DNA from: Vermamoeba vermiformis
Taxonomy: Eukaryota
Length of the DNA: 64,000 nt
Direction of reading: 5' to 3'
NCBI GenBank assembly: GCA_045837725.1
Contig: JBEWZL010000232.1
Coordinates: forward strand, 186,001 to 250,000
Under the pieces are notes generated by a model that was given only the letters and a program-made list of their open reading frames with translations, did not search any database and was not told the DNA's origin. The position numbers and the translations under genes are program-made. Shown here one piece after another: positions 19,087 to 63,490 of the stretch. Every line of letters begins with the position of its first letter. The first letter of the stretch is position 1.

Positions 19087-22000
19087 TTACAGAATATACA
19101 TAGAAATGGCAACAACAGCTGCTACAAGCAAGTCGACTGGTGTATGCATAGCTGCTGAAACCATGGAACCTTGTTGAACGGGTGCACTAACAGGAAGAGC
19201 AGAGACATAAGGGGCGATATCTGTCAATCGGAGTTTAGTCGGATATTTTTATCATGGTTCTTGAAAGCAACTTACCTCCAGTGAATTGATAAGTGAGCGG
19301 ACCAATCAAATTCCAATAATTGATTGATACATAGAACTGCACGGTCGTATTTTTCGCAGCGAGCGAGTACCACGAAGGCACGGGACAAGTGATCGTGGTG
19401 TTGTCAATCAATGTCGCGGGAGTGACGCGTTCATTGCTGTCACCGAACACGCACACCAAGCAGTCAGGGCTCGTGGTGTAAGTGGTCTCGGGGTTGCAGC
19501 CAGTGAACTGCTCGAAGCCTGAGCCTTTGACAGTGATCTTGTTGCCGCCGTCCAATGAACCGCTAGCAGGGGTGACATTGAGAGCACGGACATTGTTCGC
19601 TGTGCAGAGTGTTAGAACGAACATTAAAGTCATTGTTATCCCTTACAATAGACCCTGATAGTAGCCTGGCCCATGTAGACCACATTGTCACTCGACACCG
19701 AGATGTTGAAGGGCTGCGTTGAGTTCATTTGAGGAGTGGTGCATACAGCGAATTCACTCCACTGATTGACCACCAATCGACCTCTGTAGGGCATATCGGC
19801 GTTGATGCGACACCACACCTCATCGGTGACGGTGTTGAAACCAGAAGTGCTCCAAAACACATCGCTGCCGTTCTGTGGCACGGCTGCGGGATAAGGACCG
19901 CGCAACACATGCACTGGTCTGCCTGGGTTTGAAGTAGGGGCCTTGACTGGTCCGTGGGGAGCCCGTACAGGGGCTGTAACAGGGGAGTGGACAGGAGCTG
20001 CAACAGGAGCTCTAACGGGCGCGGAGACTGGTGCAGTGACTGGTGCACGAACAGGAGCGGCAACAGGAGGGGTGACAGGTGGAGTGGTTGGAGGAGTGAC
20101 AGGGGGAGTGACAGGGGGAGTGACAGGGGGAGTGACAGGTGCAGCGGTGGGAGTGAAGTCAGGCAGTGGTGTGGCTGGTCCTTGAGTACCACAGAACATG
20201 CCCGAGGCCAAGCCAGTAGCCGTGAGCGCTTGCACCAATGAGGCACAGTCGGATGAAGTGACAACTTGACCACTCAACGCGCCAGTCACGGGATCGCGCA
20301 GATTGACATTGTTGCTCGAGAGTTCTTGACACGCTTTGATCAAGAAGTCTGCGTGCTGCGCGAAGGTACTGGTGGGCACGTGTTTGGCGAGACCACGGAT
20401 GTAGATGTGGAAGGCTTTGACCAGTCCAACACCTGTCACTGTCCGGCCGTTCAGTGAACCGCCGTCCACGAACAGTGCGTAGTTTTGATTTGGAACGCCG
20501 GAGTTGGTGTGGACACCTCCACTGTCAATTGTGCCGCAAAACATGTAGCTGTCGTCCACTGAGGCAGGATTAAAGAAACAGTTCGGGTTGTACATGTCAC
20601 GAATTCCTGCAATGTTTGTCAATCACTGTTTGACACGTGTCATCAATTACTGCTCGTACGTACCAAGCGTTTGACCGCCAGAGTTGCGCGAAGAGAGCAC
20701 ATTAGTGACTTGATCGCCAATGATCCAGCGTCTGTTGTTATCGGGTATGTAACAGGCACGTGATGTTCTGGGTGGAAAGGCCGTGGGTAGATTCATGAAC
20801 TGTTGAATGGACTCGCCGATAATGTCAGCATAGCCCTCGTTCAATGCACCGCTTTGATATTGATACTGCAAGTTAGCCAAGCCTGAGACATACCCCTGTA
20901 AATGACACGTGTCAATCAACGGTGTCACAAAGTCACCATCCACTTACATGACCCCACTCGTGTGCCACTACGTCAATGCCATTGCCGAGACCAGGGCAGT
21001 AGTACGACGCACCATATGGCGGAATGAATGCAGCGTTAGGGCACTGCCAGCCACCCATGGCCCCGGAGAGAGTGTTGGTGTACATTTTGAACGAGGCACC
21101 GTGCAAGTCCCACGAGTCATAGCCTCCGACATTGTTCATCGCCGTGTACAGCTGACCCGACGCGGCCACGAGTGTGTCGACCTCAGCATTGCCAGTGGTG
21201 CCCTGGCCCTCGCTGTAGATCCACGTTTTGGAGCCGTAGTCGGTCACGTAGCGACTGAGCGCGTTGTGCACGCCAGAGAAGTCATCAATCACTGCACCGC
21301 TGTGTGCGTCCACGAACACGTGATGCACGTCCAAGTGTTCAATGCAGACAGTGGTCACGTGGTAAGTCACGTGATTGGTGCCTGCCTTGCCCTGCGTGAG
21401 GCCTGTGCGGTACACCACGAGCTCGATCTGACTCGCCTCGTATGTCCTAATTAGGCAAGCGATTAGATACGCGCAATCACATGGACTTGATACTCACATG
21501 TTGCTATTGAGTGAAGCACGTGCAATGTCTTTAGCCTCCTCTCGCGTGAGTGTTGGCACCACATCCAAGTGCAGATCAGGAATGATAGTGCTCGTCACTG
21601 ACAAGACTGCATTCTGTTCGTTGAAGGTCACGCGAAGTGCAGTGCCATAGACTTTCAGACCCTTGTAGACCTATGCAACCGTATCAATATTAACTCTAGC
21701 ATACCAAATTAGAAGCCACACGTACCTGATGAAAACTCAGTTGAAAGCGACCGGGGATCTGGAAGTCGTTCGTCTTGTCCATGAATACAAGCTCTTCGTC
21801 CATATTCCCCACGCCCAATTGAGGAGTTCGTTGTAGAAATTCGCGCAAAGAATCGAGCGGGTCAAGTACCGGATCTAGCGCAGCAATTATTAGTAAATGA
21901 AGAATTGTCAGTTGATTAATAGCGTACCTAGTGCTCGCTTCTGGAGCTCACTTTCATCGACGATTACCATATACGCTGTTCCTGTAGCAGGATTTATGCG

Positions 22001-43996: not shown

Positions 43997-45347
43997 TTAA
44001 ATGCCGTACATGTCGCGCGTGTTGTTGCGAATGGTCTTCAACACATTGTCCAAGGTGTCACCTTTGAGCTCTGCAATCTTCTGCGCAATGAGTGGAATGT
44101 GCCCGCTGTGACTGACGCCTTTGAGTGGATGAGGGGCCATGTAGGGCGCATCAGTCTCCAACAGAATGCGGTTCAATGGTATCTGTTTCACGGCCTCGCA
44201 CACATCTGCGGCATTGTTGAATGTAATTGCGCCTGTGAAGCCAAAGTACATATTAGGAAATGCCTCGATCAATCGCTTGGCGTGCAGTGCGCTGTCAGTG
44301 AAGCAGTGCAGATGTATCTTGTGCTGCGCGGGCATGTAGTCCTTGAGAATCGTGTACGTGTCCTCTGCGGCACTGCGACTGTGCACCACGAGGGGTTTGT
44401 CGAGCTCCACCGCTTTGAGTATCTACCGCCAATCAGCAATCGAGGTATATGCGCGGTATACCGAGCTAAAAATAGCTTACCTGCGCGATGAATACTTTGC
44501 GCTGCACTTCAGGCTCACTGTGATTGTAGTGATAATCGAGTCCTGTCTCGCCCCACGCCACTGCCTTGGTGTGCTACGGTGCGTCAGTGGCACAGTTCTA
44601 TGAATACACTGCCATGCACTCACCTTCAAACACTCCACGATGCGCTCTTCAATGGAGGCTGTGTAGTACTTGGCGTTGTGCGGGTGAATGCCGAACACTG
44701 TGTGACATCTTAGTTGAGCTCTATTTGACACGTGTCAATCACTTACCGCCCCAGATGTTTTCCTCGGCAAGCAATTCTCTAAATTTAGTAATGTCAATAA
44801 ATAGGTGCAATGCAATGCTGTCAACTTACTGCCACATGCCAAGACTCGGTGACAGAGCTGCTGCGTCACTGAGAACAGATGAGTCAGAGCCACTACAACG
44901 GACCAATCACGTACCAGAACACTGAAATACAGCCCTCAAAGTTGGCTGGAAATTTCTCTGATTGACGGAGCTTGGTGAAGAGTGATTTGTTGTCTTTAAT
45001 GCGCAGCTTTTGAAATACGTATTCGAGGTGGCAATGCGTGTCTATATATAGCTCTTTTGAGCTCACTGTTGGTTCATTTGCTGTTTGAGTGCAGTTGCGG
45101 GCAATGTGACCTTCCTGCAGAATATTTTGTAATTAATTTCTTATTTTATTCGAGAATTAGTCTTTATCAGCAGGCAGACGTTTTGCGATATGTAGTGTTA
45201 TTATATTATTTTTGCCTCAATCCACACCTTGCCACACTGATAACACGTCGGTCCTTGAGATCTGGTGTTATTATTGCTTCTTGTGTTGTTGTTATTTCTG
45301 TACCCTCCTCGTGAGTTACCTCTGCTGTAGTTGTTATTGCGCGACAT
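43997..45347 (-). CDS. TatD-family nuclease (TATDN2-like) with N-terminal RG/N-rich segment and CCHC zinc knuckle
   Basis: IDTHCH, NFEGCISVF, GIHPH, GETGLDY, VVHSR, HLHCF, LLETDAPY; spliced CYQCGK|EGHIARNC. Confidence 0.88.
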
Positions 45348-45521
45348 AATTGCACCGTTGTGGTGTCGATGTTTGGTAAATAAGTGAGAATGGTCGCCAG
45401 GCGTTAATCAATCTCAGATTATCTAATCCCTGAAATTTCCAATCACGTGACGGGCAATGCGCTACGCAACAAGAATGGTACGAACTACTTTATTACAAGG
45501 ACGAGTCAGACATATTTACAC

Positions 45522-48500
45522 TTATTGTTCAAACTGTGCCATGGTACGCTCCACGCGCTCCTCTTGCTTCCTCTTGACGCGCTGTCGCCAAGCGCCGAAT
45601 TTGACGGTGAAGTCGCGCAGACTGATCTTGAGTGCTGCCGCGCACGAGGTGAGATCGTCCATCGACAGCTTGCTGCTCTTGCCTTCTAGAATTGCGCGCA
45701 GCAGACTCATGTCCGTTACAATGCGGCGCAGTTCACCTGTTGACACGTGTCAATACGAGTACTCGACAGCAATCCACGTGACTTACCTCTGAAGAATTGC
45801 GTGCCACCAATCGAGTGTGCGACAGCATAGTCACCCACGACACAAATGTTCATGATCACGTGACGACACTGCCAGGGAGGTGAGTTCAGTGAAACAGTGC
45901 CAAATAAGGCAATACTTACGAGGTAGATGTACTGCACGGCATTCGCGAGTGACTCGCAGTCGTCAATGTTAGCATCAGCTTGACGCGCAATGTGCTTCAT
46001 CTTGGACACGACTGCTTGCTTCAAGCGCACGTCCTTCACATTGCGCTCCTTCTCGTGCATCACGTACATGGAGTAGAAGCTGGCTGCGGTCAGTACACAC
46101 GCACTTGCACGGCAGTTACAGTTACGTACCTCATGTTGTTCTCGAACTGTTGCAGCAAGTTCTCGCGCTCATTCTTGCCCTTGATCTTGTACGTGCACGA
46201 GTAGTGTGAGGGGTGCCAGCCTGCGAGACAGATCCAGCAGAACTGGTACTTGCACGCACTGCAGCTCATGTGATTGCACCCACCGTTCTTCTCGATGGGA
46301 TTGCCGCACTTGGGACAGTCCTTGGTGTACGAGAGCAGCCACTGCAGTGTCTTCATCTCGCGATCAGCTTCAGGGTCGTGCTTGTCGTGTATCTGCTTGA
46401 ACCACTTGAGCTCGTTGCACGTCGAGGGCCAGTGACCTTCGCCCATGCACTGGAAGCACCACACACTGCCGCACTTGCAGAAGATCATGCCTGGCGCGGG
46501 GTGAGCACAGGTAATAAGGGCCCTAACGAGACTTACGTTCACGACCAGGCGCGAGCACGGCAAAGTTGCAGCCAGCGGCAGGACACCACTTGATGTTGGG
46601 ATTGCGCTCGACGAATGATTTGGTCACAAAGCGCACGTACTTGTTGTAGAGCTGCTCGTTGGCGAGACTGGCGAGCAACACTGGATCTATGATGTACTTG
46701 CACTTGTAGGCTGGACACGTGATGTCGTCTGAGGCACCTAATGACACGTGTCAACAACGGGTGTGTGCGATGGCAAGGTGCCAATTACCTTCGTTGATCT
46801 TGAGACTGAGATAGTTGTTGAAGCAGTCGAGACAGTAGAAGTGACGGCACTGCAGTCCGCACATGTGATCGAGCGGGTACTCCTCCAAGCAGCCAGGACA
46901 CTCCATGCTCTGCTCGTAGTACTGACTGTCCTCGCTGCCACTGCTGTCCTGCATCACTCCCACTTCGGCGAACAGCGCGGCCAAGCGACCATTCACTGCA
47001 GCCTCGCGGTAATCGGCGACGAGTTTGTCTGAGGTGAGTTAGTTCTAGTGTCAGTGTATATAGATATGCACGTACTCGAGTCCCATTGATAGTGCGTCAA
47101 CAGCACGCGCAGCACAGCTGTACTGGGCGCAGAGTACTCCGCGAGACACTCCGCGGCACGTTGCAGAGCGAGTGTGCGGTAGTTGAGAATGTCGTGCGAG
47201 TCCAGCACTGAATAGCTCGGCTTGTGCGTCAGTATGTGGCGCATGCTGTCTGCGTAGTCCTTGTTCAGCTCCTCGCGGTCATCGTTGCGACTCGTGGCTG
47301 CATCGTAGCGCACTGAGGGCGCGGTGCACAAGAACTCTTCGGCCACTGCAATCAGACGCGCAATCATCGCACTGCCACGCAAGGTGCGCGCAGTCTGCAC
47401 GAGCAGGTGTTTGAGTCGCTGCAGGGTGCTGTCGCGCAGCTGTGATTCGAGCGAGTCCGTGCGCAAGAGCAGTCGTGGCAAGCGCGCAGGATAGGCCGGC
47501 ACGAGCACGAGAATGAGCTGGAGGTGCAGGGGACGCGGGAAGAGGTGTGCATCCGCGCTGTTCTCGTCGGCTGGGTCTTGCAGTCGCGCGCTGAGCACGA
47601 ACGGCAGCGAGGTGGACTGCTTCAACTTGCCCTCGACGAAATAGCTCTGCAGACTGGCGAGCTCGTCGCGCTGTGCAGTGAGGTACTGCGTGAGGGGCGT
47701 GGCGACACTGACACTGCTCTCATCGAGCTCGGTGTCTTCAGGCACGGGTGTCATGTCATCTTCGACATTGACCTCGTGCAGACCTGCTTTCTCTTGCTTC
47801 AACCGCTCCTCTTCTTGGCGCACCTTGTCGTCAGTCACCACGAGATTGGTGCCCATCATCTTGTGTCGCAGCACGGCCAGTTCTTTCTCGCGGCGCAACA
47901 TGTGAATCAGTTGGCGCAGCTGTGGGGCACGACGCACGGCACGCACTTTGATGGGCTCGTCAGTGGTCCTGTCTGACGTGCGCACGCGGTGCATGAATGT
48001 CGCCAGTGCCGCGCTGTCGTACTCTTTGGTCGGCTCAACACGGCGCGGCAAGGGCTGCACGGGTGGTGCAGTGGTGACGAGTCGGTTGTAGTCGGGCTTG
48101 GACTTGGGCACTGCAATAGGTTCGCGCCACTCTGCTTGCAACATGCGCGCAATCTCCTCGTCCGCGAGCTCTTGATACAGCTTGTGCAGCAGATTGGGTC
48201 CTTGCTCGACTGGTCGCGAGGGCTGTTGTTGTTCAGGGGCCACGAACCAGCCGTCAATCTCCTCCATCATGTGATCGTCCCAGTCGGCGAGGTCATTCGG
48301 ATCTGTGCAGTCAATCAGTGCCGTTCATCACCGCGATATGCGTGGCACTATCGAGTACTCACCGAAGCTGCCCGTGCTGTCAATCTCGTCGTCACTCACT
48401 GCATCGCCCTCGTCCTCGTCCTCGCTCTCACTGTCGCTGGGCAGGGGTTCAATGCCCGGGACTGCAGTGCCCGCATCAGGGTCCTCGAGCAGCAGCAGAA

Positions 48501-49064
48501 TGCACTTGTCGACATCACCATTCACTTGCGCGAGCTTGAGCAAGATGAGCTCGTCACTCGCATCGGGGATCATTTCTTTCACTCGCGGCACTTTGCGCTT
48601 CAGTGCGGCACTGCTGGGCTTCTTTTTCTTCCCTTCCCTCACCTCAGCGTCGGTCTTGGCGTCAGTCGCAGCACCAGACTCATGGCCACTAGTCTGATCT
48701 GCATCTGTCGCGTGTGTAGTCGTCACTTGCGGCTCTGCGGCACGCACTGGTTCTGAGGCACGTGTCACGGGCTCGGGTGTGGGTAGTGGCACTAGTGGTT
48801 CAACAGGGGTCTCGAGTACATATTGCATGGCCACATCGAAGTTCAATTTTGATTTTTTGACGGCGTCCATGATGACTTGCAGCGAATGGTTGGGAAAGAT
48901 CTCGTTCAACTGCAAGATCTGCAACAGGGCGAAGTGAGAAATTTATAATAATTTAGAATTATCAGCGCTATATCAAGCGGAAATTCCAATAGTAATTAAT
49001 TAGAACATATATCACGTACCATTGATTCATACAGCTTTTGCTTTCTCTTTCGTTCGGCATCCAT
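45522..49064 (-). CDS. RBR E3 ubiquitin ligase: CUE-CUE-UIM-RWD-RING1-IBR-RING2-Ariadne-like
   Basis: RING2 CPKCGNPIEKNGGCNHMSC..C.YQFCWIC; IBR KWCPAAGC..CKCG..WCFQC...H; RING1 CPGC..CRHFYCLDC; RWD (ELASLQSYF..YPARLP); CUE-like LNEIFP and VKEMIP segments. Confidence 0.85.
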
Positions 49065-54360: not shown

Positions 54361-54463
54361 GACTAGTGGTGTATATGATCAGTATTAATAATGATTGTAG
54401 GGCTGGGCTGGACAGAAAAAAAGACAGGGCAAATTTCCTCCCTGTATGTTCAACACGCGCGCA

Positions 54464-57400
54464 ATGGAAGAGCAGAAGAGCGACACTACGAACAGTTCCA
54501 ATAACAATAATAACAATGTGCAGAGTACTGTCGATGAGTTCGTGAAGAAGCAGAATGAGCTGATCGAGCTTGAAAAACAGGAAGAAGTCGAGAAGATCGA
54601 GCGTCTCCTCGACAGCTTGCCTCGCGCAGTACGTAGTAATTCAACGTTAATTATATCCTCAATATTGCGTGCATCATTGTCGCCACTTGAGAGCTAAAGT
54701 AGTTCGACTAGGAGCTGGAAAAGCGCGGCCTGGCCCTGCTAAACCACGAGATTACTGAGACCGCCACTGGTCTGTACGGACGCGTGCTGGTACGTGCATT
54801 GATGCTACTCGACCCTCGTGTACTCACCGCTGTCACGCACCCAGGTGACACTCGAACCTAAAAATAGAGCCGTGCAGCAACAGAGCGATACTAATAAGGC
54901 AACCAAATTCTCCGCGGGAGATATTGTGGGACTGCGCGCGGTGATCACTGACCCCGGCGCTGATGGACTGCCAAATATAGAGCGCGGTGTTGTGTCGCGT
55001 GTTGCTAAAAATAGAATTCAAATCGCACTGAATCAACCGCCCAATGAGACACTCTCCTCCACGTGGGACGTGGTTCAACTGACCAATCAGGTGACGTTCA
55101 AGCGCATGTCACGTGCACTCGACACCCTGGCGCAGTACACAGGCCCCGCACTGGGCACGGTGCAAGTGCTGCTCGGACAACGTGCCCCCGAAGTCAAGTC
55201 CTTGCCCGTGACTGCTGTGCCCGGACTCAATCCGCCGCAGTGCGAGGCCATTGCATTTGCCCTGGGCGAGGGACCGCTGACCCTGATCGAAGGGCCGCCC
55301 GGCACTGGCAAGACCACCACAGTCGCAGCGCTGATTGGTCAGGCCGTGCGTGCAGGACTGCGCGTGCTCGCGACAGCGCCGAGCAATGTGGCCGTCGACA
55401 ACTTGATCGAGAAGTTGGTGGCACTGCCGGGCCCGAAGATCAGCTTGGTGCGACTCGGACACCCTGCGCGACTGTTGGCGAGTGCCGTGGACTACTCACT
55501 CGATGCCGTGTATCAAGCGTCCAATGTGCGCGAGGTGTGCGAGGACGTGCGCCAAGAGATGGAGCAAGTGCGCGAGGAGATCAAGAGCAGTCGCGGCAGT
55601 GCGCGCAAGGGCAAGTGGGAGCAGTGGCGTGGTCTGCAACGCGAGCTGAAGCAGCGTCAAGTGAATGGTCTGACTGCCCTCGTGCACAGCTGTCAAGTCG
55701 TGCTCGCCACGTGCACCGGTGCCGCAGACAAGCTGTTGACACGCGTGCCAGACTTTGACTTGGTGGTGATCGACGAGGCAGGCCAGGCCCTCAAGCCGCT
55801 CAGTCTCATTCCCATGCTGCGCGGCAAGAAGACCGTGCTGGTCGGTGATCACAATCAACTGCCCCCCACCGTGATGAGCAAGCAGGCTGAGAGTCAAGGG
55901 CTGAGCGAGACATTTTTCGCGGAATTGATCAAACGACACGGCGCGCAGATCAGTCGCATGTTGGTGATTCAGTACCGCATGCACGAGAAGATTATGCAGT
56001 GGTCGTCGCGTGAGTTCTATGACCGTCGCCTCGTCGCTGGTAAGATCACGTGATTTGATTCACTGAACGCGCTTTCATGTGCTATTTTTAGATCCCAGTG
56101 TCGCGCAACGAGTCCTCGCAGATCTGCCGCTAGTGACAGCCAATGAGAACACGACAGCACCGCTGCTATTTATAGACACGAACGGCTGTGGATTGTGGGA
56201 ACTTGAAGGTCCGGACGGGGACTCGAAGGCCAATGAAGGCGAGGTGGATGTCGTGCACGAATGGGTGCAAAGACTGATCGCGAGTGGTCTGACTGCCGAT
56301 CAGATCTCTGTCATCAGTCCCTATTTGCATCACGTCAATCTCCTGCGCGGAAAATTAGCCCCGAAATATCCGAGCATGGAGATCAACACCGTGGACAGCT
56401 TTCAAGGCCGCGAGAAAGAGGCTGTCGTGATCAGCATGGTGCGGTGCAATCGCAACAAAGAGGTACGTGCATCTCGGTGCTGTCACGTGATTGGTCAGTG
56501 CTAAATATAGCTGCGGTAGGTCGGATTCTTGAAAGATTATCGTCGCCTCAACGTGGCAGTGACACGTGCGCGCAGACAGTGCACGCTGATCGGTGACAGC
56601 GAGACACTGAACAGCGATGCATTGTTGCAAAGACTGGTCAGTTATTTCAGTGAACAGGGCGAGCATTGGAGTGCGCAGGAATTCTTGCCAGACGTGCGGT
56701 TCTACAGCGCACCACCGCCTAAGAAGAACGCTAATAACAACACCAAGAAGAAGAAAAACAAGAAGAAACCCGCCGCCAAGGCACAGAACGAGAGCAAGCC
56801 GAGTGCTAATAATAGCACAGCCAACAGCACTAACAGCAATGCTAAAAATAGCAACAGTGAAGCAAAGAACACTGCCGTCAGCAACACTAGCAGTGCCAGT
56901 CACGTGCCAGAGCGTACCCAACCTGTCGCGCAAGATGTCAATGTGACACCTGTCACCGCTACGGCAGTCCCCGAAGTGACACCTGTCGCTGAAGAAATGC
57001 CCAGTGACGACGAGACGGAGGCCAGTGCTACCACGAACAGCACGGCAAACACTGCTGCAAAGAAGAAGAAAAAGAAAAAGAAGCCTGCCAACAAACCAGC
57101 GAGCACGAACACTGCCGCGAAGAAAGACAAACTGACCAATGAGAAAGAGTCCTTCGCGAACCTGACGGACGATGAAGTGCTGGAACAGGCACTCAAGTAC
57201 AAGAATGTCTGTCACTACCCGCAGTGCGACAAGAGCGTGGCAATTGTGGGCTCGGTGTGCGACCACTGCCACTTCAAGTACTGCTATGTAAGCACCTGTT
57301 CACCTGTACGCAGCACGCTAATCCCCCGCACAGACGCACTTCCACTACGAGACACACGGCTGTGGCGCGGCAGCACGCGAATCAGCGCGCAAAGAGTGGC

Positions 57401-57579
57401 TGAATCAGCAGAGCAACAAAAGCAAGCCCAAGTCCAAAGAGTGGCAGGCTGATTACGTGCGGAACAAACTGCACAAGAAGGTAAGTCGCTGTTTGACACG
57501 TGTCATGTGCTAATCGATCGCGTGACAGTTGGAAGAACAGAAAGCAGCGCGCACCAAGCAGCCCAAAGCCAAGAAATAA
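54464..57579 (+). CDS. IGHMBP2: IGHMBP2/Hcs1 Upf1-like SF1 helicase with C-terminal AN1 zinc finger
   Basis: GPPGTGKT, APSNVAVDN, IDEAGQ, GDHNQLPP, QYRMH, TVDSFQGREKE, RRLNVAVTRAR; AN1-type finger C..C....C..C...YC..H...HGC. Confidence 0.93.
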
Positions 57580-57678
57580 CACTCGCGCACTGACCTATCC
57601 ACCATTGTACATAGCTGTCCACACTACAGCACTGTAATAAACACGGCTTATTCACAACAGTTTATTAGTATTTACGTC

Positions 57679-60600
57679 TTATTTGCGCTTGGTCATGCGC
57701 TTCGTCTTGGCCTTGGTGAGCGGATCATTCACCCGCGCTGCAGCACGACGCAGCTTGGCAGGGGTCTCGCTGACCACGGCCTCCGCGCCCTCGTCTTTCT
57801 TGCTCGCTTTGCGCTTGGACAACTTTTGAATGTTGTACTGGGGCTTGGGTGTCTGCTGCAGACGACTCGAGCGACGAATTGTTCCGCCCAAGGACTCACG
57901 TGTGCGCGGCTCTTCGTCGCTGTGCTCGTCGTGCGATGCGAGTGACTGATTGACACTTTGATTGACACTGTCACTCTTGTCCTCGCGACTGACCAGCGAC
58001 TGATTGACACTTTGATTGACACTTGTCTCTTCGGCACTCTCGTCGTCTGGTGGCACGCTGGCACTTTGTTCTTCGCGCGAGTGGTGCGGACTGGACCTGT
58101 CTTTGCTGACACGTGACTGACTGGCACTCGGCTCCTCGCCCTGATCGACATTCATGTTCACGTGCTCGTTCTCAGGCACGTGCTCTTCAGTGACAGCAGG
58201 GCCGGTGAATTGTTCCACAAAGTCGAAGGTCGAAGTGACAGGCGGAATATCTTCCATGTCACTGATTGGCACCTCGGAGATGTGTTCCGTGTCAGGGACG
58301 TTATGTGACTCGGTGTCCTGCACCACACTGGTGGCACGTGGCACGTAGTTGTCAATCCACGCTTCATTCTCATCAAAGTGCTGTTCATCGTGATCGATCT
58401 CATCGGCTTCGACCACGTGCTCGGACAGGTCGTGTTTTGACACTTTGCTTGACACGTCCTCGTCACTGGACAGCTCTTCGATTGGCGCGTCATTGATCAC
58501 GTGATCACTCTCTTCGCTCAACACCTCGTCTGACACGTGATCTGACACGTGATCTTCTTGCATGTCCACGTCATTGCTGTCACTCTGCTCACTTGATTCA
58601 CTGAACAGCGATGATTCACTGCTCAGCTTCGCGTTGTTATTTTTAGTTACAGGTGTCACGTGCTCGCTTTCGTCCTCTGAATCGAGATCTACGACCACTG
58701 TTGCAGGTGCTGGTTTGACATCTTCCATGCGACGCAGTGTCTGTTGCAGTGTCGTGCTCGCTTGTTGCAGCGGAGATTGTGGTGGAGATTGCGGACGCAC
58801 TGATTAGGCAATTAGGAGCGGAATAACGGTGGCGGAATATTTACCTTGTTTAAACGGAGTTCTTTGCTTCAATTCGCTGTCACGTGGTGACTCCTCGGCA
58901 TTTTTGATACCATAATTGGAAGTGACAGGTGTCACGGGGGTGTCAGCAGGTGCAGTCAACAGACCAATCAGGGACTGACGACGCGAGGGACCACCGAGTG
59001 ACATGCGCGAGGATTTGACACCTGTCAATGACATGCGCGGACCACCTGTCAATCGCACTGCTGTCGGAGCTAACAGCGCGAGTGACTTGCGCGGTCTGAT
59101 GGGGCTGTTCACTGAACCAGCGGTCACGTGACTGACGTGACTCGGTCGCTTGAAAGTTGAAGGCGAGGCAGTGACGCTGTCGCTCGGCGTGTTGAACAGT
59201 CGCGGCACGTGACGTTTGACAGCTGATTTGGGTGTCTCGGGCAGGGTTGCTGGCACTTTGACAGGTGCCACGGTGACAGCTGTCAATGCGCGTCGTTGAA
59301 CAGCAGGCAATGTGAGGAGATAGTTCTCGACCAGGGCACTCTGATTGGGATCAGTCACGTGCTTCTTCAGCAGCTCGTGGTGGCACTGCACGGCGTCACT
59401 GACACGACCGCGCTGCAAGTAATACACGAGCAAGAACTGCGCATCACGTGGCTGCGGTGATCGTTGCAAGAATTCTACGAGATACTTGTCCTCGAGGGTG
59501 TCAAGTGGCAGTTCGAAGAGCACATCGAGCTTGTTGTGCGCGTGACAGTATTGGTACAGGTGGTACAGCAGTGTCTCCAACAGCACGGGATCGTACGACC
59601 CTTCGCGTGTGGTGCGACTGATGGCACGCTGATGGACCGGTCAGTGCCATTACCATATTAGGACATGAGTACTTACCACGGCATTGAATGCTTGGTGCAG
59701 CAGATTGTTGTAGAGCAGCACGTCAATGTAGGTGATGACGTCATCAGTGCCCGTGATCTGATCACGTGACTGGTGACCAATCAGCAAGTGCGACTGCAAG
59801 TAGTTGTTCGCAGTGATCACGCGCAGTGCCAGTGCGTACTGCTCGTAGTCGTGCAGCGTCTTCACGATCAGGCGCGTCCACTGCTCCAGCTCGATTTTAG
59901 CGCCGTGCCGCGTGCCACCTGTCAGCAGCGCGACTGCTTCAGTGAACTGATGCGTGTCAAGCAGCCACAGCGCGCGAGTGAGCAGTTGATAGTCCTGATC
60001 GATCATGAAGCTCTGCGCGCAGTCCTCGATCAGGGCCGGACTGAGCTGCAAGTCGTGCAGCAAGTAGAGCAGCACACAGCGCTTCTTCACGATCAGATCT
60101 GCGTGCGTGCGTTGAAACACGTCGACCAGGGCTGACAGACTGCTCGGGGGATAGCTGCTCACGTGATCGGACTCCAGCGAGGATGTCGCGGTCATCGACT
60201 CCCACAGCAGATCTATAAATAGCTTCGTGCCATCACCGTGATCGGTCTGTTGTTCCGTTGACAGATTGACACGTGTCATGTTTTTAATTGTCCAAAAATG
60301 GCGATAATGTCGTTGCTGTCTATCTTTGCGGCGCTGTTTGATCTGCCCATCGAGATTGACCAATGAGGTGCGCACTGACGGATCTACCAGGGCATGTGAC
60401 ACGCACCACAGCACAATCTCGAGAGTCTGGCTGGTCGAGAACATGTCACGTGACTTGTCGTTCAGCAGCTCCATGTGTTCGGCACTGATGTCGCGGCGCG
60501 AGGCGAGTGATTGCAAGAGTGCCAGCAGATCTATAATTAGCACAAACCAGCGCGACATGTCTTCGTGCTGTCGCTCGTGTGACTTGTCATCGGTGTGCAG

Positions 60601-62557
60601 CGGTGTCTTGAGTGCAGTGACAGCTGTCAACGTGTCAATCAACGCCACGTGCTCGGTGACAGTACTTACTGGTCTGTTCGATGCGCGCGACTAATTTGGC
60701 ATAAGCACGTGACAGCCAATCAAAGATGATCTTCGTGTTGGTCAGTGTGTACTCGTGATCCATGCTGCGGTGTGTGATGTCTAAATATGGCATGGTCAGT
60801 CACGCATGTACTAATAAGGCAATATCGATCGCCGTACAGTCCGCGAGCACCGCGAGGAGATTGTGTTCGAGCAACATGTCCCAGTAGTTCATCAGCCGCG
60901 TCACTTCGTCCTCACTGCGCGCACACAGGCCCTGGTCGCACGCCCACGTGTAGAATTGACCAAAATTGGTAAGTCCGCCTGCTCCGCGCTGCGCTATTTT
61001 TGTCAACAATTGTTCCGCGTGCGACTGATAGCTCAAAATGGACACCGCGCGTGGAGTGAGCACGTGGAGTGCACAGCTGAGTGCCACACCGTGCGAGTCA
61101 GGCACGTGATCGAGTGTCACGTGACGACGGAATTCACGCACTGTCATTGGATTGACCCAACATGCCTAAATATGGGAATTAGATGACACGTGTCACACCG
61201 CACTCGACTCACCAATCCCGACAGCTGATCACGTGACTGAGGTGCATCTATTTTTAGCGGATAGCTCTTGAACAGTGCGGGCTGTGCGAGGCCAGTGGAC
61301 TGCCAGTCAAACAGCTCCACGTGACGCGTGATCTGCCACTCAAAGTCGCGCAGGGGCAGTGTCTCCCACACGAACATCACTTGGGGCCGATCACTGCCCT
61401 GGTCGAGGGTCTGCATGCCAATCACGTGACTGTACTTGTTGTTGCTGCCCACGAGCACGCGCTGAAATTCACACTCGAGTCTGGTGTCCTGATCACGTGA
61501 CAGGTGATACAGTGCAATGTTGCTGGAGGACTCGTGATGACATGTTGACGTGTGACAGCTGCCACGTGTCACCCAGAGCCACTCTTCCGTGCCAAGGCGT
61601 TGCACAGCGAGTGCGGTGACTGGTGGCTTGGTGTACTGATCGGTGGTGGTCGCGGACTTGATTTGTTCTGTGAACGGCTGGTTAGTGCCACGTGTCACGC
61701 TAGAGTGCTACAAATAGTACCGTGCAGATCCGAGGCGAGTTGACACGTGAACTGCGTGAGGGACCAGAGCTGCACGCAGCCAAAGCTGAAGCCGACGAGC
61801 ACGCCGTGCTGACTCTCTACCAGGGCTGTGACTGACACACTGCTGCGCTTCAACAGCGTCACTTGATCACGTGAGGTCGGGTACTGCACGTGCTCGCCAG
61901 TCACTGCACTTGCATTCACCACCAGCACGGGCAGGGTGTTGGGTGGCACGGTGCCATCGTACTCGACTGCAGTCACGTGATGGACTTGCATGCGCGCGTG
62001 AGGCACGTGTCGGGCGAGATCAGTGAGCAGCACGTGACCGCCCAATGTACCGAGCAGCAGCGGCAGTGTGAAGTGTGGTGGCACTGTGCCACGCAGCACG
62101 AGGAGCGCGGTGATCACGTGATTGAACTGCACCTGCGTCACCACACTGCCCGTGCGCACATCGATCAGGTACAGTGTGCTGTGTGTGTGCGAGTCTGGCA
62201 CGCGCGCACTAACGAGCAAGTATTTGCGGTGCTGGATGTGCACTTCAGCGGTGGTGTTGATCTCCTGTTGTGCGAGGTGAGGACTAGAGCTGTGGGATTT
62301 TTAATAATTACCATTAATTCATCGTCATCATTCTTGAACGATATTAAGTGTGTTCGCTTGAATATAGACAGATTGAAAATTTGTAGATAATTTTTGGAGC
62401 AAATCCAGGCAATGGTGCCGTCCTGCGCGAATGAGCCACGCAATAACTCCTGTCCCCTCTGCTGCTTATTATTGACTACGGAGGCATCGAATCCAATTGC
62501 TGGATAGAGCTCATGGTGCGCTATGCTCGGTGTTGCAAAAGAAGATCCGATCTGCAT
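57679..62557 (-). CDS. AHCTF1: Nucleoporin ELYS/MEL-28 (beta-propeller + helical ELYS domain + disordered basic tail)
   Basis: YPPSSLSAL, VLLYLLHDL, LTRALWLLD, LFELPLDTLEDKYLVEFL, FLLVYYLQRGR; N-terminal propeller (LVGFSFGCVQLW); tail RRSSRL. Confidence 0.85.
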
Positions 62558-62789
62558 TGATTGATAGTGTAATTTAACGCTGCTATCTACAACATGCAGT
62601 TATATAGGTAATATAAATATATACACTAGTGCTCAATCATACAACTGAGCAACACTAAATCAACAACAAAGAAAAAGGCGCGACTTTTTTTCGCGTGTGT
62701 CAGATCTGAGAATCGATCAACCACAGTGACGTCATCGAGTCAATGGGGCTATATACAGTCGCATTTATTCTATGTACATCCGTATCGCA

Positions 62790-63490
62790 TCACTCGCTGT
62801 CAGAGCCGTAGCCGAGCAGCGCACTGAGTCCAGATCCACTCGTCTCGCTCTCCGCACTCACTGCTGCACCGCTCTGCTCTTCAATCTTGCTGCGCTTGGC
62901 TGCAGGTAGGGGTGAGTCATCATCATCGTTATTGTCCTCATCACGCTCCTTGCGCTTGTCCCCACTGTGCTCCGTCTTGGGCCGCACTCGCAGCACAGGC
63001 TTGGTGTCCTTGCTCTTATTGTTCTTATTCTTGGGCTTGGCGACGAGTGTGAGCACACTGGCAGTGTCGGGCTGATAGTGGAGCGACTGCACTTGTTGTT
63101 GAAAGGCTGCGGTCTCGCGGTCCACTTGCTTGGCGATCTGCTTCTGTTTGCGCTGCAGTTCAATGAAGAACATGTACTCCTCTTCGCTGATGGCACTCGG
63201 TCCTCCTGCGGGGGGGGCGGTGAGTGGATGTGGCGTGGATCAACCGCACACAATTATCACTGGACACATAACTGTGTAGCTTATAATATATATATACAGC
63301 ACTACGTACCAGCAGTGACGCGCTCAGTGTCGAATTGGATCTGCTTCTCTTTGTTGTCTTTGAGGCGTTCATACAAACTCTTGCCGTCCTCTGCGAAGCG
63401 TGGGGGCTCGGGATTGCTCGCCTCATCGCGCCGATTATTATTGCTATTATATGAGGGCTTGCTAGTGCTGCCTTCTGACACGAACTGCAT
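62790..63490 (-). CDS. PSME3IP1: FAM192A/PSME3IP1 (Fyv6-like) nuclear protein
   Basis: MQFVSEG..KSLYERLKDNKEK, EEEYMFF, C-terminal LLGYGSDSE. Confidence 0.7.

Follow-up and report, generated by a model that had tools for sequence, protein, structure and literature searches.

The ELYS-like gene and its array of CACGTG words

A 64-kb stretch of the Vermamoeba vermiformis genome (positions 186,001 to 250,000 of contig JBEWZL010000232.1, assembly GCA_045837725.1), called here the window and numbered from its first letter, encodes an ELYS-like nucleoporin whose gene body is packed with the palindromic word CACGTG. The gene lies on the minus strand at 57679-62557 and has eight exons (62312-62557, 61721-62264, 61213-61667, 60838-61165, 60670-60780, 59677-60623, 58845-59628 and 57679-58799) totalling 1511 codons, joined across frame-consistent GT..AG introns of 45-57 nt. 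The Pfam ELYS domain (PF13934) was matched on exon 6, in the minus-strand frame 59650-60690 (E=2.1e-24; 87 bits, cut-off 28.8). The N-terminal exons, where a beta-propeller would be expected, gave no Pfam match; the stretch ahead of the domain runs to about 560 residues, like that of long-form ELYS. The intron at 58800-58844 is skipped in a contig from sequencing run X5, which confirms it as an intron, the RNA label of that run being a guess. A HMMER search with the ELYS protein returned 14 matches, only one of them close, and a word-index search of longer proteins returned none. The best named homologues are amoebozoan, from Cavostelium (33%) and Balamuthia, and full-length homologues named ELYS occur in Balamuthia.

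Between 57897 and 62120 of this gene, the exact word CACGTG occurs 39 times at a mean spacing of 111 nt, with 36 copies in coding sequence and three in introns. A sequence-only reading of the window had counted about 39 by hand, and the exact count returned that figure together with every position it had named. Its expectation of about one copy was too low, as local dinucleotide shuffles of the 4224 nt give 5.36±2.28 (maximum 13 in 1000), which leaves an excess of about 7-fold. When all 6-mers were ranked in 4-kb windows, CACGTG in ELYS was the strongest local cluster (Poisson p ~1e-24), and the 64 kb as a whole hold 82 copies, against 21.7±4.2 in whole-window dinucleotide shuffles (maximum 31 in 100). 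The smaller counts reported earlier also held closely, with seven copies in the first 15 kb (about six had been claimed) and eight each in 20370-21525 and in the neighbouring IGHMBP2-like helicase gene.

The array is confined to the gene. Its first site lies 437 nt past the ATG and its last 216 nt short of the stop codon, and the word is absent from both the 5′ spacer (62558-62790) and the 3′ spacer (57579-57678). CACGTG stands at 3 per kb across the helicase gene and at 9 per kb across ELYS, and the 1.9 kb past 62120 are free of it. Expansion by tandem repetition was considered and set aside: the sole repeat that duplicates sites, a 12-nt unit present in 2.2 copies at 58529-58555 and encoding DHVSDHVS, accounts for only about two of them (58534 and 58546). 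Nor are the sites regularly spaced: the coefficient of variation is 0.78, where randomly placed sites would give 0.96 (P=0.08). A scan of the window against Rfam gave no match.

Frames and introns

Among the 36 coding copies, 21 are read as CAC-GTG (His-Val), 13 as xCA-CGT-Gxx, which encodes Ser/Thr/Pro followed by Arg and then Asp, Val, Ala, Gly or Glu, and two as xxC-ACG-TGx. The rarity of the third frame is explained by the flanks, since the extended form TCACGTGA read in that frame is a stop. The recurrent peptides that had first drawn attention to the gene (DHVSDHVS, SHVSHVT, HHVT and xSRDQ) are all present in the spliced translation.

The word also falls in introns, as had been claimed, with three copies in 343 nt, a density equal to that of the exons. 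These three copies occupy three of the seven ELYS introns: intron 2 (61668-61720) has a site at 61689, intron 3 (61166-61212) has one at 61187 within the 12-nt palindrome TGACACGTGTCA at 61184-61195, and intron 5 (60624-60669) has one at 60646. Longer palindromes built on the same core occur in exons as well. A second copy of TGACACGTGTCA, read as Thr-Arg-Val, lies at 60267-60278, and a 14-nt palindrome, TGATCACGTGATCA, lies at 58494-58507; GTCACGTGAC is also found at 59123, 60445 and 61116, and ATCACGTGAT at 62113.

Codon and residue choice

Selection for His-Val and Ser-Arg-Asp peptides, combined with codon bias, could yield the word as a by-product, and there is something in favor of this reading. 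CAC and GTG are the preferred codons in ELYS (89% of His and 65% of Val codons, respectively), and a related sequence described below retains 10 of the 12 His-Val pairs that align. Even so, shuffling synonymous codons while preserving the protein gives only 14.8±2.5 copies (maximum 23 in 2000) against the 36 observed, and shuffling codon order gives 4.5±2.0. His makes up 4.8% of ELYS residues, and 22 His-Val pairs occur where 6.2 are expected (3.6x); 21 of the 22 are written CAC-GTG, a rate well above the 0.58 predicted from ELYS codon usage (binomial P=1e-4). The same holds in an unrelated frame, where 13 of 20 [STPA]-R-[DEVAG] triplets are written NCA-CGT-G against 1.84 expected (P=1e-9). 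Codons adjoining the word are biased too: a T-ending codon precedes His-Val in 13 of 21 cases (5.2 expected; P=3e-4), and all five Asp codons among them are GAT.

Distant orthologues lack a His-Val excess. Observed and expected pairs number 2 and 2.7 in Cavostelium, 3 and 1.8 in Balamuthia, 1 and 1.1 in Chromosphaera, and 1 and 2.0 in a chytrid, and just one of 21 ELYS His-Val sites aligns with His-Val in any of the four, in alignments of 28-33% identity that are unreliable outside the ELYS domain. Together with the two frames and the introns, these results largely refute an origin in peptide selection, to which we attach next to no probability. Taken jointly, the shuffle, codon and orthologue tests support the conclusion that the excess lies at the DNA level and that the word drives both codon and residue choice, not a need of the protein; the earlier proposal that a DNA word was shaping amino-acid choice thus survived both the codon-usage and the orthologue comparisons that could have overturned it.

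A distant metagenomic fragment of the ELYS domain (P0012/P0016) is also rich in His (8.6%), with four His-Val pairs where 1.1 are expected. To judge from this composition, a similar word bias may exist in another lineage.

Exactness and flanks of the word

The array is made of perfect copies. Against its 39 exact CACGTG words stand only 50 copies of all 18 one-mismatch words combined, a ratio of 0.78, where background parts of the window give 0.08-0.17, the helicase gene 0.24 and an M4 peptidase gene 0.36. No single one-mismatch class is enriched (1-11 copies each), and ACGTG is preceded by C in 39 of 42 cases. No enrichment was found in the array for other CANNTG words or for NACGTN words, and a general enrichment of palindromes was rejected, as those not centred on CACGTG occur at 5.1 per kb, the same as elsewhere in the window. 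CpG depletion was likewise rejected, the observed/expected ratio being 1.04 for ELYS and ranging over 0.86-1.12 along the window. A neutral mutational equilibrium and a decaying relic would both be expected to be rich in near-misses, and the scarcity of such words around the array disfavours them.

The flanks are selective as well. When the 39 sites are folded into 78 half-sites, R stands at -2 in 67 and T at -1 in 39; counted by hand along the sense strand, 21 of the 39 sites have T(-1) and 18 have A(+1). This near-equality indicates a symmetric flank, as expected of a dimer reading double-stranded DNA. The extended flanks noted in the first reading were also recovered, with TCACGTGA at 12 of the 39 sites, the full RTCACGTGAY at 10, and at least one RT/AY half at 24.

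The array in a related sequence

A metagenome contig of 3652 nt (L001) aligns to 61274-57662 of the window, with identities of 80% in nucleotides, 82% in amino acids and 63% at four-fold sites. It carries 18 CACGTG words with a perfect/one-off ratio of 0.60, against 27 in the overlapping part of the window, and 15 sites are common to both. Seen from the relative, 15 of its 18 sites are kept (P=1e-5), where any coding 6-mer is conserved at a baseline of 32%. The exonic TGACACGTGTCA copy is identical in the two sequences, and intronic sites have moved: the window and L001 have, respectively, one and none in intron 3, none and two in intron 4, and one each in intron 5, there with different flanks.

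From the common sites and the moving intronic ones we infer that the array predates the split between the two sequences and that sites turn over while their number is roughly kept. Twelve sites are private to the window and three to L001 (P=0.035). Seven of the differences at window-private sites are substitutional, and in four of these L001 has CACGCG where the window has CACGTG; two of the substitutional site differences are non-synonymous (Asp/His and Ala/Val).

The word outside ELYS

Beyond 57897-62120 the window holds another 43 CACGTG words, about twice the roughly 20 expected from the whole-window shuffle mean scaled by length, and words containing CACGTG are the commonest 8-, 10- and 12-mers there. 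Across the 64 kb, density is very uneven from gene to gene, with smaller clusters in the M4 gene and at 45-47 kb. A rough set of 69 candidate introns, which includes false positives and misses some real introns, contains 11 CACGTG, and the 23 of them that lie before 20 kb have no copy. Exon and intron densities therefore co-vary from gene to gene, which suggests that CACGTG density belongs to the transcription unit or domain and not to the protein. No function common to the CACGTG-rich genes (ELYS, the helicase and the M4 peptidase) could be made out.

The 12-nt perfect palindrome TGACACGTGTCA occurs in nine exact copies in the window (20631, 20903, 26534, 44726, 45741, 46742, 57494, 60267 and 61184), where 0.28 would be expected even with one mismatch allowed. 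Most of the copies sit in introns of 45-57 nt, in many cases with 7-20 nt between them and the 3′ splice site downstream; those in introns include two in the M4 gene, one in the helicase gene, those at 44.7, 45.7 and 46.7 kb, and that in ELYS intron 3, and one (60267) is exonic. A mobile element was rejected as their source, the flanks being unrelated. The TTGAC arm of the palindrome resembles a branch-point word.

Explanations for the array

Our leading interpretation, to which we give a probability of roughly 45%, is that the CACGTG words in the ELYS body are under selection as a dense homotypic array of sites for a dimeric protein that binds CACGTG. Selection would act on the double-stranded DNA word, that is, on exact CACGTG with the preferred flanks RT-CACGTG-AY, and a candidate reader would be a dimeric protein such as a basic helix-loop-helix (bHLH) zipper of Cbf1/USF/TFE type or a G-box bZIP. 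Exons would satisfy the word in whichever frame is open, as His-Val from CAC-GTG or as Ser/Thr/Pro-Arg-Asp and similar triplets from xCA-CGT-Gxx, introns would carry it freely, and the elevated levels of His and His-Val would be the consequence for the protein. Bound protein could act on the chromatin or transcription of the locus, for instance by occupying the DNA at a high level, by phasing nucleosomes, or by serving as a barrier or tether. The core and flanks agree with class-B E-boxes and G-boxes: the word is exact, perfect sites are favored over variants, other CANNTG words are not enriched, and proteins of the USF, TFE and Cbf1 types prefer T at -1 / A at +1.

Several observations weigh against such an array. 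From the side of the window, just 15 of 27 sites are common with the relative (P=0.01; 32% baseline), and synonymous positions in the common sites are not clearly more conserved than background. Constraint on the His-Val sites is weak, with eight of 11 kept against an expected fraction of 0.44 (P=0.05); for Arg, CGT is unchanged in five of nine common sites, by manual count, where the background is 0.55. Exonic sites favor TCACGTGA and intronic sites elsewhere favor ACACGTGT, which may mean two different readers or processes. The CACGTG-rich genes have no evident function in common, binding within a transcribed body should hinder elongation, and we know of no precedent for 39 sites within a transcribed coding body. 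A broader form of the same idea, in which chosen genes are saturated with the palindrome in order to recruit one abundant dimeric protein that might license, insulate or position the locus, overriding coding preferences, is speculative and in our judgement improbable.

Neutral processes were also weighed. A sequence-specific mutation or biased conversion could write functionless CACGTG into certain transcribed regions, possibly through CpG-context transitions from CACGCG or CGCGTG. Four of the seven substitutional differences at window-private sites are indeed of the CpG type, C/T, with CACGCG in the relative; CGCGTG/CACGCG, at 10 copies, is one of the two most frequent one-off classes; the imbalance of 12 window-private to three L001-private sites (p=0.035) suggests directional drift; and the co-variation of exon and intron densities between genes fits a process of this kind. 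Set against these points, an equilibrium predicts far more one-off precursors than perfect sites, contrary to a ratio of 0.78 in the array (0.08 in background), and the CpG ratios given above bear no trace of methyl-CpG decay. Such a process would, moreover, have to spare the central CpG while flanking CpGs mutate, and we know of no process that targets a palindrome of 6 to 10 nt in this way, so we consider a mutational origin unlikely. We are likewise skeptical, and slightly more so, of a chromosomal architectural element (centromere-, origin- or periphery-tethering-like, with Cbf1/CDEI-like words) that overlaps ELYS and its neighbor by chance. The half-site RTCACGTG is identical to the CDEI consensus of yeast, the density falls off over about 7 kb spanning two convergent genes and drops to zero beyond 62120, and which genes carry the trait does not depend on their function, all of which would suit such an element. 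The locus is nonetheless transcribed and spliced, if the guessed RNA label of the X5 contig is right, and the smaller clusters within the same 64 kb, in the M4 gene and at 45-47 kb, are too many for an element present once per chromosome.

A role at the RNA level is very unlikely. The 36 exonic copies would be carried in the mature mRNA, where the self-complementary UCACGUGA could drive folding, mRNA-mRNA pairing or the binding of an RNA-binding protein. Intronic sites, on the other hand, are as dense as exonic ones, and four 750-nt coding segments have minimum free energies typical of their dinucleotide shuffles (z of -0.2, +1.0, -0.8 and -1.2), so that unusual folding of the mRNA was rejected.

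Relation to known systems

The closest likeness is to the E-box and G-box clusters bound by Cbf1, Pho4, USF, TFE/MITF, Myc-Max and plant bZIPs, which have the same exact palindromic core, the same T(-1)/A(+1) flanks and the same preference for the perfect site, and in which individual sites are gained and lost between relatives at a steady total. Such clusters, however, comprise a few sites in promoters or enhancers, whereas all 39 ELYS sites lie within the transcribed body, spread over 4.2 kb of coding sequence and introns, and shift the amino-acid composition. The CLEAR element (GTCACGTGAC) of TFEB targets, a 10-nt consensus found near the starts of lysosomal or autophagy genes, was considered and rejected, since the three perfect copies of GTCACGTGAC fall inside the coding sequence of a nucleoporin gene. 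CDEI of the budding-yeast point centromeres (RTCACRTG, bound by Cbf1) shares the half-site consensus RTCACGTG, but occurs just once in a centromere of 125 bp, and nothing observed in the ELYS array points to centromere function.

Other hyper-abundant words offer parallels of a different kind. The bacterial DNA uptake words (DUS/USS), Chi and KOPS are likewise read at the DNA level in several frames and leave recurrent peptides; unlike the palindromic, gene-specific ELYS word, they are asymmetric, genome-wide and served by known machinery. The periodic AT clusters (PATCs) of C. elegans germline genes are a non-coding DNA signal running along the bodies of a gene subset, and are thus also gene-specific, yet they are AT-rich, periodic and confined to introns, where the ELYS word is an exact GC-rich hexamer that overrides coding sequence. 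To our knowledge, no cluster matches the ELYS array in location, in number (39) or in its effect on the protein. HIP1 of cyanobacteria (GCGATCGC) is, in the part of the literature represented by PMC5861425, a short, exact and over-represented palindrome inside genes that lacks an agreed function, much like the word described here; as portrayed there it is bacterial and genome-wide, while CACGTG is concentrated, in the 64 kb covered, in a few eukaryotic genes and their spliceosomal introns. A literature search at the level of listings and abstracts returned nothing on intragenic CACGTG hyper-abundance or on CACGTG in amoebae; among the papers listed was a preprint on Cbf1/Pho4 (10.1101/2022.03.17.484790).

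Codes at the DNA level that overlap coding sequence tend to be subtle. The ELYS word stands about 7x above composition and 2.4x above what the protein requires, and has shifted the residue make-up of an essential nucleoporin to a visible degree. If a binder exists, the array would be an unusually clean natural case of the trade-off between DNA-binding selection and protein sequence, and may indicate an undescribed form of gene-body marking in the barely studied genomes of amoebozoans. Were such marking real, it would be a eukaryotic, gene-specific counterpart of the bacterial hyper-abundant words. If there is no binder, the array would instead indicate an unknown and highly sequence-specific mutational process.

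Neighbouring genes and minor observations

Downstream of ELYS lies a convergent gene for an IGHMBP2/SMUBP-2-like helicase (54400-57578 on the plus strand, start approximate), about three of whose eight CACGTG words fall in tiny introns (56047, 56484 and 57497). The gene for the M4 (thermolysin-like) peptidase (Pfam PF02868) occupies 19240-21800 on the minus strand and also holds eight copies, two of them as TGACACGTGTCA in introns (20631 and 20903). It has spliceosomal introns and a eukaryotic context, is followed by a linker of Pro/Val/Thr-rich repeats (about 19960-20170), and may have been derived from bacteria by gene transfer; it too has gained its eight words. A DIS3-like exonuclease, whose best named homologue is from Arcella (52%), and other genes are also encoded in the window.

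DNA of the window is present in sequencing runs from soil, aquifer, water and root as well, which, with the amoebozoan homologues, fits a free-living amoebozoan, probably a tubulinid. Some public runs share 0.4-0.7 of its words and reflect variation between strains. RNA reads labelled as the same species (X23 and X24) are 95-99% alike to it and leave ELYS uncovered, so they are uninformative on its expression. Over 44001-49000 these reads display many fixed differences and cover only a few conserved genes, and they appear to derive from a different strain or a sister species.

Some further words recur in the region. A composite of a CCAAT box fused to the palindrome, CCAATCACGTGA(C), occurs in four copies (45439, 61418, 21368 and 56484), and CCAATCA/TGATTGG is frequent in 52-60 kb. 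Within ELYS, TGTCAA/TTGACA, CTGTCA/TGACAG and GTGCCA(C) are enriched beyond codon-aware nulls (57947-58024 and the gene body), part of this enrichment being accounted for by a 12-nt repeat that encodes SVNQ; TGACAGCTGTCA is found twice (59274 and 60618) and TGATGACGTCATCA once (59733).

Tubulinid genomes published so far are compact, with a GC content of 42-48% (PMC10980511). In the window, the stop codons of ELYS and the helicase converge about 100 nt apart (57579-57678) and introns measure 44-60 nt, spacings that mark this genome as very compact.

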